Shown here: positions 2,872 through 58,595 of the stretch, in pieces
Layout of the letters: each line of letters opens with the position of its first letter
Numbering within the stretch: the stretch's first letter is position 1
Source of the DNA: Synergistales bacterium
GTDB lineage: Bacteria; Synergistota; Synergistia; Synergistales; JAFGMB01
Assembly (NCBI GenBank): GCA_963666205.1
Contig: OY762654.1
Coordinates: 2,400,001-2,464,000, forward strand
Reading direction: 5' to 3'
Length of the DNA: 64,000 bases
Position numbers and translations under genes: made by a program
Notes under the pieces: generated by a model
What the model was told of the DNA's origin: nothing
Database searches by the model: none
What the model saw: only the letters and a program-made list of their open reading frames with translations

Positions 2872-5382
2872 TCACATGTCTCTTTTAAGATAGGTCAGCC
2901 TCGTCCTGTTCCGGAGCAGAGCTGCCATTTCCTCTCCTGAAAGAGGAGGTGTACAGTAATATCCCTGGTAATAATTGCAGCCCAGGGATGTTATGGTCTG
3001 GAGGTCTTCTGCAGTTTCCACACCTTCTGCAACGATCTTCATATCCAAAGTATGGGCCAGATCAGATATCCCCTTAACGATCTTCAGGCTCTTGGAGTGT
3101 TCAGCCATGTTGGATACGAAGGATCTGTCTATCTTCAGGATGTCAAAGGGGAAATAATGAAGAAAACTCAGGCTTGAATAGCCTGTGCCGAAATCATCTA
3201 TGGCTATTCTTACGCCTTTTTCCTTTAGTTTGGAAAGGATCTCGACCGCGACGGAAGGATTTGTAATGATAAGGGACTCCGTGATCTCCATTACGATATT
3301 CGACGGAGATACTCCCGAAGATTCAATTCCCTGGACTATGTCTGAGTAGATGTCGTGATCCGTGAAGAGGGGAGCGGACATATTAATGGACATAAAGAAA
3401 TCTTCATTCGGGAAAGCCTTGTTCCATTCTGCGAGCTGGTAAAGTGCTTTTTCCAGTACGATCTTCCCGAGGGGCAGGATGAGTCCCGTCTCCTCGGCAA
3501 GGGAAATAAACTCCCCAGGCATTGTCACCTGTCCGTCCTTTCTATGCCAGCGGGCCAGGGCCTCGAATCCGACAAATCTGTTATCAGTTGTGGAGATTAC
3601 GGGCTGGAAATATACATGGATCCGCTTCTCCTCGATGGCCTGTCTGAGTTCTGTTTCCATGATAAGCATATTGTTCTTGCCTTCCATGAGAGAAGCATTA
3701 TAAACAGCATGGTTTCCCCTGCCTCTGGCCTTGGCCGCGTACATTGCCCTGTCTGCATTGGCCAGAAATTGAGAAGCGCTTTTACCCCCATTATTACTGT
3801 TAACTATACCGATACTTCCTGAAACGTATATCTGTCTGCCTTCGATATTGACAGGCCTGGATATTCCTTCAAGGATCCTCTTTGCGACAATTTCCGCGGC
3901 TGATGGTTTCCCCTTGTTATCAAGGATAATGACGAACTCGTCTCCCCCGAATCTGGAAACCAGGTCAAAGGGTCTGGTCAGGTTGACCAGTCTCTGGGCT
4001 ACAACTTTAAGTACTTCGTCACCTGTTCCGTGACCGAGGTTGTCATTTATGTTCTTGAAGCGATCCAGGTCCAGAAAGAGTACATCGAAACTGCCGTTAT
4101 TATCATGAAGACATCTTTTCAATGCCTTTTCAAGTTTGGATATCATAAGAGTCCTGTTCGGAAGTCCTGTAAGTGCATCATGCATGGCATTGTAACGAAG
4201 CTGCTTTTCAAGATACCGGTGTTCCGTTATGTCATGAAAGAGAAAGACAGCCCCCTCCGACAGGTTCTCCGCTTCCCTGAGAGGGGATACTTTCAGGGAA
4301 AAATGGACAACCTTACCCGAGGAAGAAGTAAAAGATATCTCTCTATCTCGAAGTGGTTCGTTATTGAGAAAGTCTTTCCAGTTATTACCCCCACCCCCGT
4401 TTATCATTGCCAGTACACTATCTATGTGCATATTTACAAGTTTTCCTGCGGGACAGTTCAGAAGGGAGGTAAGCGCCTGGTTAACATCCTTTATTACCCC
4501 CTCGGCATCAACAACGATAACCCCGTCGTGCATGCTGTGCAGTATATTCTGAAGATCGTCTCTCGATATGGTCGTTTCTTTTATCGTCATTGCCATATTC
4601 TGCAGGGATCTTGCAAGATCTCCGATCTCGTCCCTATGATCGAAGGGGATATCGATGTTAAATTCTCCCTTCCCGACTTTTTTAATCAGTCCGGAAAGGA
4701 TACTCACAGGTTTGGTTATTCTGTTCGCAACAGCGTAGGAGGAAAGGAGTACGAGCAGGAAAAGGACAGAAGCCACGAGAAACAGAAACCTCAGGTTTGA
4801 AAGAAAAGTTTCCCGGTCCGTTGAAATCAGGACTGAATTAAGGCTTTCCAGTGCTGTATTCACGAACTGGCTGGAACGAATAAGGCAGACACCTCCGGAA
4901 GGTACCCCGCCAAGTCTTATGGGGGCCACGGCATAAAGAAGAGTTCTGTCCTCGTCCCATTGCAGGTTCCTTGTAGTTATATCGCCAATGGAGAAGATGT
5001 CCTTGATATTTTTCCGGGAGGAGGTACTGCCTGAACCATCGGAGATGATATTTCCCTGGTTATCGAAAAGGCATGCATAAACGGTCTCATTATCGTTCCT
5101 TACAGCCTTAAGGCTTTCCCTTATGGAATTTTTGTCCTCTTCTGCCATGTATGTGGAGATATCTCTGGCAATATTTTCTGCCAGAGAATCGCTCTTGTTT
5201 TCAAACTTCTGAAGCAGGGATGACCGTATGACTGCGAAAGTGAGGTTACGTGTATCCTGAAAGGAGTCGCTGAAATTAGAGAACAAAACAGCTGTTACGA
5301 TACAGAAAGTCGTAATTACCAACGCAAGTATAAGGAGAAAATTTCTGTCACGAATTCGCATATTAAGTACCTTCCTTGCCAT
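2872..5382 (-). CDS. Membrane diguanylate cyclase/phosphodiesterase (HAMP-PAS-GGDEF-EAL)
   Basis: Two TM segments, HAMP, PAS, HDALTGLPNR, RPFDLVSRFGGDEF, FEALARW and DDFGTGYSS. Confidence 0.95.
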   Translation of the reverse strand: MARKVLNMRIRDRNFLLILALVITTFCIVTAVLFSNFSDSFQDTRNLTFAVIRSSLLQKFENKSDSLAENIARDISTYMAEEDKNSIRESLKAVRNDNETVYACLFDNQGNIISDGSGSTSSRKNIKDIFSIGDITTRNLQWDEDRTLLYAVAPIRLGGVPSGGVCLIRSSQFVNTALESLNSVLISTDRETFLSNLRFLFLVASVLFLLVLLSSYAVANRITKPVSILSGLIKKVGKGEFNIDIPFDHRDEIGDLARSLQNMAMTIKETTISRDDLQNILHSMHDGVIVVDAEGVIKDVNQALTSLLNCPAGKLVNMHIDSVLAMINGGGGNNWKDFLNNEPLRDREISFTSSSGKVVHFSLKVSPLREAENLSEGAVFLFHDITEHRYLEKQLRYNAMHDALTGLPNRTLMISKLEKALKRCLHDNNGSFDVLFLDLDRFKNINDNLGHGTGDEVLKVVAQRLVNLTRPFDLVSRFGGDEFVIILDNKGKPSAAEIVAKRILEGISRPVNIEGRQIYVSGSIGIVNSNNGGKSASQFLANADRAMYAAKARGRGNHAVYNASLMEGKNNMLIMETELRQAIEEKRIHVYFQPVISTTDNRFVGFEALARWHRKDGQVTMPGEFISLAEETGLILPLGKIVLEKALYQLAEWNKAFPNEDFFMSINMSAPLFTDHDIYSDIVQGIESSGVSPSNIVMEITESLIITNPSVAVEILSKLKEKGVRIAIDDFGTGYSSLSFLHYFPFDILKIDRSFVSNMAEHSKSLKIVKGISDLAHTLDMKIVAEGVETAEDLQTITSLGCNYYQGYYCTPPLSGEEMAALLRNRTRLTYLKRDM

Positions 5383-21097: not shown

Positions 21098-21253
21098 CCT
21101 ATCAGCTCCGTAGGTATTATTATTTCTATTCTACCAAGTACAGTAAAAAAGGTTTGGAAAATATTTATAATTTACAGGATTTGATATATACTAACGTTAA
21201 ATAGAAAAAGCTTTAGCATGCGATTGGGATAATCTTTATTTGAGGTGATGTGT

Positions 21254-21646
21254 ATGTCCAGACGTGCGGTCCTTGTTGTAGTTCTTGTTGTTCTGGTAGT
21301 AGCAGGTTTTACCTTAATAATCGGTAAAGGAACGTCCTGGTTCAATGCCTCCTCTGGTCCGAAACTTGAGATTGACGAAGATGCCCTGACCCAGATGAGC
21401 GGGAGTGGAAACGAGTTTTACGTAAGACCGGGCAGAGCAGGCTGAGGTGCTCCGCTGCAGGCGCTCGTGAAGCGTGGAAAACCCGGAAAAGATCCGGACA
21501 GTTATATTCAGTGTAATTCAGGAGACATATGTCTGTGGGTTCCAGGAGATCTTGAGTTCAGGGATAATCTGGTCCATGTGATCCTTGACAAGGGCCGGGG
21601 CAGGAAAATATTACTTGTAGAAACTGCACTTCTGTCTTCTCAGTAG
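21254..21646 (+). CDS. Putative selenoprotein 1 (130 aa, Sec at codon 64), HesB/IscA-like 'CC/Se motif'-type fold, N-terminal hydrophobic anchor
   Basis: The frame stays open for 66 codons after TGA 21443-21445 (GAPLQALVKRGKP...VETALLSSQ, TAG 21644-21646). The read-through part is homologous to the neighbouring gene, and a SECIS-like hairpin is present. Confidence 0.85.
21461..21475 (+). promoter_or_regulatory. Candidate bacterial SECIS of selenoprotein 1
   Basis: Stem GCGCU/AGCGU with loop CGUGA; 20 nt separate the UGA from the loop. Confidence 0.7.
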
Positions 21647-21749
21647 GACTTGAGTAAATTCAGTAGTTTTCCGGTTCTGTCATTAGCTTTTTAGTTGTAG
21701 AATGTTCTGAAGAGATTGAGTTTCTATTCTTTTGAAAGGAGAAATATGC

Positions 21750-22133
21750 ATGAAAAACAAACTGTTATTGTTGTTAGTTGCCGTGATAATTGTATTCACT
21801 ATGATCCTTCCTGCGATGAGTGCAGAGGATCTTGTGCTTGATATCACTTCTGTGGCAAGGGCTGAAATGGCTCCGCAGGGGTATGAGTGGTTCGTAAAAC
21901 CCGGTACATATCAGGGTTTCTGAGGAGAACCACTTTCCGCTCTGGTTCGGAGCGGCATGCCTGAAAAGCCGGAACAGTTCAACCTTCTGACTGAAGAGGA
22001 TATGAAGGTCTGGGTACCCAAGGGAATGACATTCCAGAACAATCTTGTAAAGATAATAGCCCTTCCCTATAAGGGGAAAAAAGTTTTAAAGGTTTCCACT
22101 GCCCAGACCATGGAGGGTGAAGGCTGCGATTAG
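21750..22133 (+). CDS. Putative selenoprotein 2 (127 aa, Sec at codon 58), paralogue of the preceding gene, with signal peptide
   Basis: AAAGGAG RBS; MKNKLLLLLVAVIIVFTMILPAMSA leader. The frame stays open for 69 codons after TGA 21921-21923 (GEPLSALVRSGMP...VSTAQTMEGEGCD, TAG 22131-22133), immediately followed by a terminator. Confidence 0.87.
21937..21955 (+). promoter_or_regulatory. Candidate bacterial SECIS of selenoprotein 2
   Basis: Stem CCGCUCU/GGAGCGG with loop GGUUC; 20 nt separate the UGA from the loop. Confidence 0.75.
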
Positions 22134-22142
22134 TGTGTCAGT

Positions 22143-22182
22143 AATGAAAAGGGGCGGGTCTTCTGACTCGCCCCTTTTCATT
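22143..22182 (+). terminator. Intrinsic terminator closing the two-gene selenoprotein unit
   Basis: 18-bp stem AATGAAAAGGGGCGGGTC-ttct-GACTCGCCCCTTTTCATT, 9 nt after TAG 22133. Confidence 0.85.
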
Positions 22183-22272
22183 CTGATGTAACAGGAAATA
22201 TTTCTTTTCATTTTCATATAGTTGGATCCCTATTATAATGAGGCGATAATTAATTTAAAGGCGGTGTGCTGT

Positions 22273-55530: not shown

Positions 55531-57428
55531 CAGTATCTCTCCATGGATGGCCCTGATCCTGCGGTGGCCTTTGGAATCATGCTGATATCTGATGTGGAGT
55601 TGAATCGGCAGTGGGGCACCAGTTTTTCAAAAGCCCTGTATATAGCTGCTCTATCTCCTCTATGGGCGGAGGCAAAAAGGTCTTCCAGATGGTCTTCCAG
55701 ATGGTCTGGCAGATTGGGATTTTTTGCGAAAAATATCTTGTCATGTTTCGTGGCAAGGGTGCCTTCCTCGGCTGTAAGGAGTTCTTCAAAAAGTTTTTCA
55801 CCCGGGCGTATTCCGGAATAAACTATATCGATATCAACAGAGGGCTCAAAGCCTGAAAGCCTGATCAGGTCCTTTGCCAGGTCCAGGATCTTTATGGGCT
55901 TCCCCATGTCAAGGACATAGACAGTTCCGTTTCCGTTCATCCCTCCCGCCTGAAGGACAAGTTGTACCGCTTCAGGAATGGTCATGAAGTATCGCTGCAT
56001 TTCAGGATGGGTAACAGTAACGGGTCCGCCCCTCTGGATCTGTTCCTTGAACATGGGCACAACGCTTCCCCTGCTTCCAAGAACATTACCGAACCTCACG
56101 GAGATAAAGGCCTGTCCGGGCGATGCCCTTTCTGCTCCCCGGCGGACGACCATTTCAGCGACCCTTTTTGAAGCGCCCATTATGGATGAAGGGTTCACAG
56201 CCTTATCTGTGGATATATTTACGAAACGCTCTACTCCGGATTCCAGTGCACATTGAACAAGGTTTTTTGTGCCGCCAATATTATTGAATATAGCTTCATC
56301 GGGATTATTTTCCATCAGGGGGACATGTTTATGGGCGGCGGCATGAAATACAACCTGAGGACGACAGGATTGAAAAACCCTGCGGGTCTTGTCCATGAGC
56401 CGGACGTCGCTGATCACTATCTTGTAGTCAGCCTCGGGATAATCCCGTTTCAGCTGGTTCTCAACCTGGAAAAGGCTGTTCTCTCCTCTGCCCAGGAGCA
56501 CTACGCGTAGGGGATTGAAATTCAGCACCTGTCGGACAAGTTCCGAGCCTATGGACCCTCCGGCTCCGGTGATCAGTACGGTCTTGTTATCCAGGTAATC
56601 TGCTATTTCTTCAAGGTGGAGATCCACAGGTTCCCGCCTGAGCAGGTCTTCAACTTCCACTTTGCGTATGTTTGATATGGTTACTTTACCTGATACAAGT
56701 TCATGGAGTCCTGGCATGGTTCTGAATGGCACCCGGGCCTTTCTGGCGAGGTCCATAACATTTCTTGTTACCTCTCCCGGAACGGAGGGCATCGCTATAA
56801 GGATTTCAGATACATCTTCATCTTTAACTACCTGGGGGAGGATGGCTAGTTCTCCAAAAACGGGAAGTCCCAGAATGTTGATGTGATGTTTGGTGGTGTC
56901 ATCATCCAGAAATCCTATAGGGATCATCCCTGATTCTGGATGTTTCATCATTTCCTTTGACATCATTGTTCCGGCTTCACCTGCTCCTACGACGAGAACT
57001 CTTCTGGTTATACGGGGGAGGGGTGATAGGCCGGTTTTTTCATGGTAAAGACGCCAGGCAAGTCTGGCGAAACCCATAAAAAACAATGTTAGAAGCCCAT
57101 CTATGGTGGGTACGGATCTTGGAACTCGAAGAAAAGTGTGCATAAGGAATATGAGAGTTGACTGAAAAAGGATGAAGATACCGCATAATTTTATAATACC
57201 GGTCAGGTCCTGGATGCTTGAATAACGCCAGAACTGTTTGTTTACCCGGAACTGGTTCATAAGGATCGCTTTCAAGGGGAGAGAGACCAGCAGATATATT
57301 CGCATGGATTCCTGGAAAACAGAAAGATCTCCACCGAGCCTCAGCCAGAAGGCAAGGAAAGATGATGTCAATCCGAGGAAAATATCAAGAATAAATTTTG
57401 CAGTTAACATGTGTTTTGCCTTTATCAT
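55530..57428 (-). CDS. WbpM/CapD/PglF-like membrane UDP-GlcNAc 4,6-dehydratase
   Basis: N-terminal TMs; GAGEAG, TGAGGSIGSE, HKHVPLME, STDKAVNP and RFGNVLGSRGSV. Start at MIKAKH after AAGGAG. Confidence 0.92.
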   Translation of the reverse strand: MIKAKHMLTAKFILDIFLGLTSSFLAFWLRLGGDLSVFQESMRIYLLVSLPLKAILMNQFRVNKQFWRYSSIQDLTGIIKLCGIFILFQSTLIFLMHTFLRVPRSVPTIDGLLTLFFMGFARLAWRLYHEKTGLSPLPRITRRVLVVGAGEAGTMMSKEMMKHPESGMIPIGFLDDDTTKHHINILGLPVFGELAILPQVVKDEDVSEILIAMPSVPGEVTRNVMDLARKARVPFRTMPGLHELVSGKVTISNIRKVEVEDLLRREPVDLHLEEIADYLDNKTVLITGAGGSIGSELVRQVLNFNPLRVVLLGRGENSLFQVENQLKRDYPEADYKIVISDVRLMDKTRRVFQSCRPQVVFHAAAHKHVPLMENNPDEAIFNNIGGTKNLVQCALESGVERFVNISTDKAVNPSSIMGASKRVAEMVVRRGAERASPGQAFISVRFGNVLGSRGSVVPMFKEQIQRGGPVTVTHPEMQRYFMTIPEAVQLVLQAGGMNGNGTVYVLDMGKPIKILDLAKDLIRLSGFEPSVDIDIVYSGIRPGEKLFEELLTAEEGTLATKHDKIFFAKNPNLPDHLEDHLEDLFASAHRGDRAAIYRAFEKLVPHCRFNSTSDISMIPKATAGSGPSMERY

Positions 57429-57556
57429 TAATATCTCCTTAAACATTTTAGAGAAGTCCATATATCGAAGGGGATCAGGATCTGCCAGTTGCATGATAAC
57501 CTGGTTTTCTTCAGTATACAGTAAAAGAAGATGCTGAACATGATACTTCTTTCCAG

Positions 57557-57611
57557 CATTATAAATAACAAAGCAGGGAACAGTGAAGTCCCTGCTTTGT
57601 TATTTATAATG
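57557..57611. terminator. Perfect 23-bp inverted repeat downstream of the ferredoxin
   Basis: CATTATAAATAACAAAGCAGGGA-9 nt-TCCCTGCTTTGTTATTTATAATG. Confidence 0.75.
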
Positions 57612-57642
57612 AATGGATATGTTATGTCGAAATCTGGAATTG

Positions 57643-57819
57643 TTAATCCTGGGTGATAGCCTCAACGGGACATACGGGTACACAGCTTCCGCACTCAATG
57701 CATTTGTCGGGTTCTACTTCGGCTTTGCCATCGATCATTGAGATCGCTTCTACTGGGCACACGCCTACGCAGGCTTCGCAGCCTACACATACATCCTTGT
57801 CTACAACAGCTTTTGCCAT
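57643..57819 (-). CDS. 2x[4Fe-4S] ferredoxin (58 aa)
   Basis: Motifs CVGCEACVGVCP and CIECGSCVPVCP; GAGGAGG RBS. Confidence 0.95.
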   Translation of the reverse strand: MAKAVVDKDVCVGCEACVGVCPVEAISMIDGKAEVEPDKCIECGSCVPVCPVEAITQD

Positions 57820-57969
57820 AAAAGATCCCTCCTCTGAAATTTCTCTGACAGACTGATTATACTTTATTTTCCATTTCCAGGGCAAACAGGTTAAAGCTGC
57901 CTCACCGCAAAGACATATCTATTTTGGACCGGGGAGCAATCCCACAAACATGATGTAATGACAATTACT

Positions 57970-58046: not shown

Positions 58047-58595
58047 CTATTCACCAAACTCATCGTCAGTATTGAGAGGTGAATAAGGATTCCATTCCTC
58101 ATCGTAAACACCTGTCTGAACATATTTCCTGAAAGTTGACCATTCCCATTCACCTGGTTTTTCAGTCAGTCCATGTTTTACCGGGTTGTAATGAATGTAG
58201 TCAAAATGTTTTATGTAATCTTCTTCAGATATTATGACATGCTCCCAGAACCGTCTTTGCCAGTATCCGGATTCTCTTCTTTTAGCTCGGCTTTCTGATG
58301 CTGGTTTTTCCATTTGTTGATGTTGGGCAAACAGCCTGGAGAAACGTGACTTTATTGAGGCCCAGCGAAGCCCGGATCTTTCATCTTCTTCCGGTAGAGT
58401 CCAGATACAATGGAGATGGTCAGGAAGGATACAAATCGCTTCGAGATCAAATGGGTATTTTTGATGTGTCTTTCGGATACTGGATCGTAACGTATCCACA
58501 GCGGGCCTGTTTGAAAAAAGGGGCATCCGGTTATAGGTAACAACAGTAAAAAAGGATGTTTTCCCTTTCATATGAATTCTTCGGTAATCTGTCAT
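58047..58595 (-). mobile_element. REP-associated tyrosine transposase (RAYT/TnpA_REP, IS200-like Y1 HUH)
   Basis: YafM-like N-terminus MTDYRR...FFTVVT; HUH motif ILPDHLHCIW; WQRRFWEH; YIHYNPVKHG; flanked by REPs. Confidence 0.92.

Follow-up and report, generated by a model that had tools for sequence, protein, structure and literature searches.

The general model of the bacterial selenocysteine insertion sequence (bSECIS) by Zhang and Gladyshev describes a stem-loop that follows the selenocysteine (Sec) UGA codon closely on its 3′ side, within the coding region. As given in the Fig. 2 legend of a 2026 review (PMC13188914), the loop has 3–9 nt, the stem 4–16 bp, and 16–37 nt lie between the UGA and the loop. 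The review also expects one of the first two loop nucleotides to be a G, as a rule with G or U next to it, and sets a folding energy of ≤ −7.5 kcal/mol. For E. coli, PMC8659212, citing Liu et al. 1998, states that an upper hairpin of 17 nt, at a distance of 11 nt from the UGA, suffices and that lower pairing matters little. A further described element is the SECIS of selD from Acetomicrobium mobile DSM 13181 (PMC13326102, Table 1, the BSepDB paper; parsed by hand). Its GGC loop lies at +18..+20 with a 17-nt spacing, and its stem of 9 bp carries one bulged U on the 3′ side; here and below, plus numbers count nucleotides from the first one after the UGA. In the present work, two hairpins of this kind were analysed in a 64-kb window from a Synergistales bacterium (contig OY762654.1). 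The stretch examined, 21443–21955, runs from the in-frame TGA of the first of two tandem genes (gene 1) to the end of the hairpin in the second (gene 2). Both hairpins are interpreted as ordinary bacterial SECIS cores in two unannotated, tandem, paralogous selenoprotein genes, and we put the probability of this interpretation at roughly three in four.

The two hairpins and known SECIS elements

The main features of the locus are listed below. L001 denotes a colinear locus from a metagenome-assembled genome labelled Acetomicrobium hydrogeniformans, 91.2% identical to the window over 8.2 kb.

21254–21646, plus strand: gene 1, 130 codons with Sec at codon 64 (ATG at 21254, TAG at 21646; translated with TGA as U)
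21443–21445, plus strand: in-frame UGA of gene 1, predicted Sec codon (frame open; Cys column in homologs; TGA kept in L001 at 3694–3696)
21461–21475, plus strand: putative SECIS core hairpin of gene 1, 5-bp stem GCGCU (+16..+20, 21461–21465) / AGCGU (+26..+30, 21471–21475)
21750–22133, plus strand: gene 2, 127 codons with Sec at codon 58 (ATG at 21750, TAG at 22133; from translation)
21921–21923, plus strand: in-frame UGA of gene 2, predicted Sec codon (frame open; N-terminal database fragments end in ...PGTYQGF; TGA kept in L001 at 4172–4174)
21937–21955, plus strand: putative SECIS core hairpin of gene 2, 7-bp stem CCGCUCU (+14..+20, 21937–21943) / GGAGCGG (+26..+32, 21949–21955)

A preliminary description of this DNA had reported that +16..+20 pair with +26..+30 around a 5-nt loop in both genes, with GU at +22/+23, one fully compensatory pair (G-C versus U-A) and two wobble swaps between the genes. 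The window sequence agrees with this letter for letter, and so do the pair counts. The loop of gene 1 is CGUGA (21466–21470), with GU at 21467–21468, and that of gene 2 is GGUUC (21944–21948), with GU at 21945–21946. If G21 and C25 of gene 2 are also paired, the stem grows to 8 bp and the loop shrinks to GUU.

Both hairpins fit the published general model in loop, stem, loop G and spacing, and nothing in them lies outside the known kind. In both genes the stem-loop sits within the coding sequence, just 3′ of the predicted Sec UGA. Loop and stem are within the limits of the model, gene 1 having 5 bp below a 5-nt loop and gene 2 either 7 bp below a 5-nt loop or 8 bp below one of 3 nt. Each 5-nt loop lies 20 nt from the UGA, and the 3-nt alternative in gene 2 lies 21 nt away. 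A G occupies an early loop position in each case (C-G-U-G-A in gene 1, G-G-U-U-C in gene 2). The loop pattern N1-G-[G|U]-N-N2 is exact in gene 2 (GGUUC, with G21-C25 pairable), whereas C21 and A25 of gene 1 cannot pair.

The apical-loop GU is shared with E. coli fdhF, where, according to PMC8659212, it is G23/U24 counted from the U of UGA; by the same count it is G25/U26 in the window, two nucleotides further from the UGA. The overall span of about 38–40 nt and a possible lower pairing starting directly after the UGA are also common to them. By that account fdhF has a bulged U in the 5′ arm and a stem 11 nt after the UGA, whereas the window stems are contiguous and begin after 13–15 nt (at +16 in gene 1 and +14 in gene 2); the upper stem of gene 1 is also shorter. 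The SECIS of A. mobile selD resembles the window elements in its short lower stem by the UGA, internal loop, upper stem and tiny loop with G followed by G or U. It, too, agrees with the general model, but it differs from them in having neither the GU nor the +16..+20/+26..+30 register.

UGA codons and the encoded proteins

The evidence from sequence comparison for both UGAs as Sec codons is good, and both genes are probably overlooked selenoprotein genes. Read with TGA as Sec, gene 1 encodes MSRR...RPGRAG-U-GAPLQALVKRG... and gene 2 encodes MKNK...KPGTYQGF-U-GEPLSALVRSG..., both frames running past the TGA into conserved protein sequence. The two are tandem paralogs with 39% identity over 90 amino acids (E = 4e-20), and the alignment spans both UGAs. 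A HMMER profile of both window proteins was searched against 1.84 billion representative sequences and gave 18 matches, to which a second search added more. Apart from one protein, P0013, the homologs form three groups, namely N-terminal fragments, C-terminal fragments and full-length proteins. The UGA column is occupied by Cys in four full-length homologs, P0012, P0017, P0019 and P0024, the last two being CC forms. Open frames in both genes together with these Cys residues agree with the Sec UGA that the bSECIS model places before the stem-loop. A word-index search with the gene 2 protein (P0002) gave one match, and tblastn of P0002 and P0012 against plasmids gave none.

The UGAs could also be read as real stops, the locus then holding four short genes or two decayed pseudogenes with no recoding. 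Public gene calls do split the relatives into N- and C-terminal fragments, and TGA is the commonest ordinary stop in the window, ending 20 of the 45 complete open reading frames (ORFs), so the genome is not recoded. However, the break falls in the same column throughout. All 15 N-terminal database fragments, one of which is the window's own, stop at the residue before the UGA column, the column that aligns with Cys in homologs; those of the gene 1 type start with MSRR.... Eight C-terminal fragments begin just past the column. In-frame conservation extends to both halves, in the comparison of the paralogs as well as in L001; judged by eye, no conserved position in the C-terminal halves carries a separate start codon or ribosome-binding site. 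The predicted single-domain fold of the gene 2 protein spans the UGA. Taken with these facts, real stops are highly improbable.

Conservation in a second genome also bears on the Sec reading. Two pattern scans of genome contigs were made; the first gave 27 pattern matches and no relative, its patterns being too specific, and the second gave 34 matches with one relative, L001. That locus carries both genes, both TGAs and both stems, with an intact gene 1 ortholog and a gene 2 ortholog of 86% identity. The organism name on L001 belongs to the phylum Synergistetes, which PMC5029168 reports as rich in selenoproteins, 13 of its 14 sequenced genomes using Sec. A Sec-containing SelD is listed for A. 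mobile (PMC13326102, Table 1).

Two further observations concern the homologs. The UGA column is Trp in three full-length relatives from short public contigs, P0018, P0022 and P0023 (GRGW-ASYYAALV). They could be true Trp forms, or a UGA could have been rendered as Trp by a gene caller using another code, TGG and TGA differing by one base. P0013 (1399 amino acids, four matched stretches) was rejected as a relative; it is a repeat protein that shares with the family only a GEYxFxVKPGTY-like strand motif.

The nearest named relative of the window proteins is the CC/Se motif family (seleno)protein NF041239, which Table 1 of PMC13188914 lists as a known selenoprotein family with the motif CxxU. 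The reactive Cys or Sec lies in the same column in both. Against NF041239 in NCBIfam, P0002 scored 23.9 bits (E = 3.3e-5), below the cut-off of 40, and the gene 1 protein (P0001) gave no match. Relatives retrieved by the window profile exceed this cut-off (P0019, 56.7 bits; P0024, 47.8 bits). Unlike the named family, the window proteins read RAGU and QGFU at the Sec site, without a Cys at the third position ahead of Sec and so without the CxxU/CC motif, and they carry hydrophobic N-terminal segments of export or anchor type (21254–21330 and 21750–21824), which the cytoplasmic-looking Cys forms do not have. The N-terminus of gene 2 resembles a cleavable signal peptide (...ILPAMSA/EDL, judged by eye only), and that of gene 1 is a long hydrophobic stretch containing RR.

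Neither window protein matched a Pfam family, and neither matched Fe-S_biosyn (PF01521) or the HesB-like selenoprotein family TIGR01911 at E ≤ 1. The Cys homolog P0017 shows a weak PF01521 match (E = 0.027). In the AlphaFold model of the gene 2 protein (mean predicted local distance difference test score, pLDDT, 84.7; predicted template modelling score, pTM, 0.72), Sec is placed in a loop between two strands. The top Foldseek matches of this model are IscA (1x0g_A, probability 0.99) and SufA (2d2a_A, 0.97), with template modelling (TM) scores of 0.42–0.50 and E values of 0.014–0.018. The protein may thus have an IscA/HesB fold, the Foldseek E values being only about 0.01. A sequence-profile search of the PDB found no relative, the single match being a chance one (E = 0.09). 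The motif listed for HesB-like selenoproteins is UxGP, compared with U-G-[AE]-P in the window proteins. The latter are best seen as an export-type branch that has diverged from a known Sec/Cys family and has a predicted IscA/HesB-like fold; by the curated tests they are not members. No description of an exported U-G-[AE]-P subfamily was found among the literature matches listed for NF041239/CC Se motif and for Acetomicrobium/Anaerobaculum selenoproteins.

The Cys-form relatives P0012 and P0017 have no hydrophobic N-terminal segments and end in Cys-rich tails. Judging by the C-termini of P0012, P0017, P0018, P0020 and P0022, many relatives have Cys-containing tails (GSC, CGSCGGCGG, SGCSGCK), and gene 2 itself ends in ...EGEGCD (22125–22133), with a C-terminal Cys. 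Such tails are reminiscent of IscA-type proteins, whose Cys ligands include C-terminal ones. In gene 1 a C-terminal Cys is absent, and two internal Cys residues are present (IQCNSGDIC).

As for annotation, the tandem genes and their public relatives, now split at the UGA into unnamed fragments of 49–75 residues, would become selenoproteins read at their full length, about 130 residues.

Stem pairing and codon choice

Covariation was counted over four nucleotide sequences, the two window genes and their L001 orthologs. In the register +16..+20/+26..+30 all 20 cells are paired, while registers slid by 1 to 3 columns pair only 20–60%. One of the five pairs is changed on both sides (G-C/U-A), two on one side (G-U/G-C and U-A/U-G), and two are invariant; G22/U23 is present in all four sequences. 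The single stem change in L001 converts G-U to G-C, and the single loop-closing change retains G-U. The latter is the Arg to Trp replacement at +25 of gene 2 (CGG to TGG), which keeps the optional loop-closing pair and is the sole non-synonymous change near that hairpin (L001 4172–4211 compared with window 21921–21960). The other changes in this segment, at +9 and +33, are synonymous. RNAalifold run on the four sequences returned the short hairpin as the consensus.

The pairing goes partly beyond chance. Counted on both strands and in any frame, the window has 2379 TGA triplets. Five pairs in the register follow 23 of them, and when GU at +22/+23 is added only two remain, which are these two sites. 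A simple hairpin within all four bSECIS limits follows 65 of 2377 triplets. Synonymous resampling with the protein fixed and with window codon usage gave all five pairs of gene 1 in 21 of 3000 trials (0.7%), which is a fair test because the register was fixed in advance by gene 2. For gene 2 all five pairs were obtained in 107 of 3000 (3.6%) and all seven in 46 of 3000 (1.5%). The minimum free energy (MFE) of gene 2 over +12..+42 was matched by 24 of 3000 resamples.

The hairpins might instead be coding by-products of an A-L-V-[KR]-[RS]-G motif in G+C-rich codons, with no RNA function and with the Sec signal, if any, elsewhere. An Ala-Leu-Val motif, with the codons GCN-CUN-GUN, accounts for the 5′ arm and the GU, and it is also conserved in Cys-containing relatives; AALV, followed by K/E-S/G, is present in the Cys forms P0012 and P0017 and in the Trp forms P0018, P0022 and P0023. 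Since these positions encode Ala-Leu-Val, much of the shared sequence is protein constraint, and the RNA-level signal sits in the 3′ arm. Hairpins with 5 bp or more and a G in the loop are present close to 501 of the 2379 TGA triplets (21%), and the overall folding energy is unremarkable. Against a by-product stands the rarity of full pairing with the protein fixed, as well as the few resamples that match the stability of gene 2. The 3′ arm falls on variable residues, Lys-Arg in gene 1, Arg-Ser in gene 2 and Trp-Ser in L001, and the arms differ in both nucleotides and residues and are nonetheless complementary, including one double change. Mere coding by-products are thus quite unlikely. The gene pair is a small but clean case in which synonymous and compensatory changes have preserved a stem superimposed on a protein motif.

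Several other results weigh against the interpretation of both hairpins as SECIS cores. The four sequences represent only two independent lineages, and with a sample of four the covariation seen is attained by 83 of 500 column shuffles. The MFE of gene 1 is ordinary among synonymous resamples (1289 and 1815 of 3000), and 60-nt folds are not more stable than dinucleotide shuffles (z = −0.04 and −0.23). No Rfam family was found at gathering thresholds over the whole window; at E ≤ 10 over 21380–22020 only chance matches appeared. The 64-kb window contains no selA, selB, selC or selD, nor any other known selenium gene or tRNA. Finally, the gene 1 hairpin alone has an energy of −5.2 kcal/mol (−7.4 in the L001 ortholog). 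It therefore misses the limit of −7.5 kcal/mol quoted for the model and reaches −10.2 only with lower stems. In free 42-nt RNA it forms with a probability of 0.04–0.06, compared with an alternative fold of −12.1 kcal/mol. Gene 2 differs in this respect. Its hairpin passes the energy limit (−10.8 to −12.2 kcal/mol) and is the thermodynamically dominant structure, with a pair probability of 1.0 in the window and 0.81 in L001.

The region of gene 1 that can form the competing fold is the following.

21446–21483, plus strand: gene 1 extended region, with possible lower stems +1..+3/+36..+38 and +6..+8/+31..+33 and also a mutually exclusive longer fold whose 5′ arm is +6..+13

This longer fold is an interrupted stem whose 5′ strand comes from +1..+13 and which shares its 3′ arm with the short hairpin. 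It is made up of the pairs 1-38, 2-37, 3-36, 6-33 to 10-29, 12-28 and 13-27, and G22/U23 lie in a large apical region. It may itself be the functional SECIS of gene 1, perhaps of both genes, with the 5-bp hairpin as a minor conformer. For gene 1 it is the MFE structure in both genomes (−12.1 and −14.0 kcal/mol; pair probabilities 0.70–0.94), and all 12 pairs occur in only 33 of 3000 synonymous resamples. Across the four sequences 44 of 48 cells are paired and two pairs are changed on both sides, a paired fraction reached by only 21 of 500 shuffles. It gains one pair from each of the synonymous changes at +9 and +33 of gene 2 in L001. In the window gene 2, however, this stem has next to no stability, at −0.2 kcal/mol with 9 of 12 pairs formed and a probability of 0.00 against 1.0 for the short hairpin, and the RNAalifold consensus favours the short hairpin. 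Eight of its 12 pairs also use +1..+10, which would be expected inside the ribosome during UGA decoding, given the 11-nt spacing of the minimal E. coli SECIS (PMC8659212). When sequences were folded only from +10 on, with at least the first 9 nt after the UGA removed to represent a ribosome on the UGA, the short hairpin had a probability of 0.87–1.0 in all four sequences and was dominant in gene 1 (0.87–0.99). In view of this ribosome-proximal folding, the sufficiency of the upper hairpin in E. coli and the instability of the long fold in gene 2, the short hairpin is taken as the functional core, and the long stem is kept as an unlikely rival.

A second hairpin of gene 1, at +38..+52, was rejected as a SECIS. 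It has an A-A mismatch in L001, a loop without an early G and a spacing of more than 37 nt.

With the short hairpin as the core, and by analogy with E. coli, SelB-GTP-Sec-tRNASec would bind the small apical loop, with G22/U23 exposed, on a stem of 5–8 bp. A stem starting 13–15 nt after the UGA would bring the hairpin to the mRNA entrance as the UGA moves into the A site, and Sec would be inserted in place of termination. In gene 1, the approaching ribosome might open the longer +1..+13 fold and leave the short hairpin as the sole available structure. The hairpin would have been inherited from the common ancestor of both genes, the 5′ arm and the GU being written in Ala-Leu-Val codons and the 3′ arm codons, on variable residues, being chosen to stay complementary.

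An extension of this scheme is conceivable, though we regard it as improbable. The Ala-Leu-Val motif (GCN-CUN-GUN) might act as a ready-made half SECIS, with a 5′ arm and a loop GU already spaced suitably from the codon of the reactive Cys. For a switch from Cys to Sec it would then be enough that the next two variable codons form a complementary 3′ arm, and the SECIS of gene 1 would additionally be hidden in the longer fold until the ribosome opens it. If true, this would explain the alternation of Sec, Cys and possibly UGA-as-'W' forms in a small exported IscA/HesB-like family, and the family would lend itself naturally to studying the origin of SECIS elements.

Shared spacing and gene layout

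From the identical distance and shared letters, the preliminary description had concluded that the hairpins define a compact SECIS consensus for this organism, usable for finding more missed selenoproteins. That the hairpins are most likely SECIS elements stands, in view of the Cys-aligned UGAs, codon choice, conservation in orthologs and the limits of the model; a rule for the organism as a whole is not supported. The spacing is identical because the genes are paralogous and have no indel between Sec and the hairpin, so that distance and letters were inherited and are not independent. The 5′ arm and the GU restate codons found in Cys forms too, and the gene 1 hairpin alone falls short of the energy quoted for the model. 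A covariance model built from the four sites scored 52–55 bits at these training sites and 13 bits at the next best position in the window and L001, and so matches only those four. The consensus would also miss the SECIS of A. mobile selD, which differs in spacing and loop. A different spacing or structure in known selenoprotein genes of this genome was one half of what had been named in advance as counting against the consensus, and here it comes from a congener of the L001 organism, not from this genome. For SECIS biology the case is cautionary, since a consensus drawn from two paralogs mostly restates shared codons and would pass over at least one SECIS of a congener.

Outside the locus, a search of the window for UGA-interrupted genes gave only three short candidates, at 57428–57958. 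They lie in a 552-nt unannotated gap beside an IS200-like ORF (58047–58595), and the three overlapping short frames need one or two TGA read-throughs. They are probably chance frames or transposon debris.

The genes next to the pair are addA/addB-like genes on the minus strand and, downstream, a gene for an FAA-hydrolase and iorA/iorB-like genes. The remaining features of the locus are as follows.

21242–21245, plus strand: ribosome-binding site GAGG of gene 1, 8 nt before the ATG (read from the sequence)
21737–21741, plus strand: ribosome-binding site AGGAG of gene 2, 8 nt before the ATG (read from the sequence)
22151–22184, plus strand: terminator-like G+C-rich 10-bp hairpin after gene 2, GGGGCGGGTC / GACTCGCCCC with loop TTCT, followed by a T-rich run (by eye only)

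A scan for terminator consensus did not list the hairpin at 22151–22184. The 103-nt gap between gene 1 and gene 2 holds no terminator-like structure and one follows gene 2, so the two genes may be co-transcribed.

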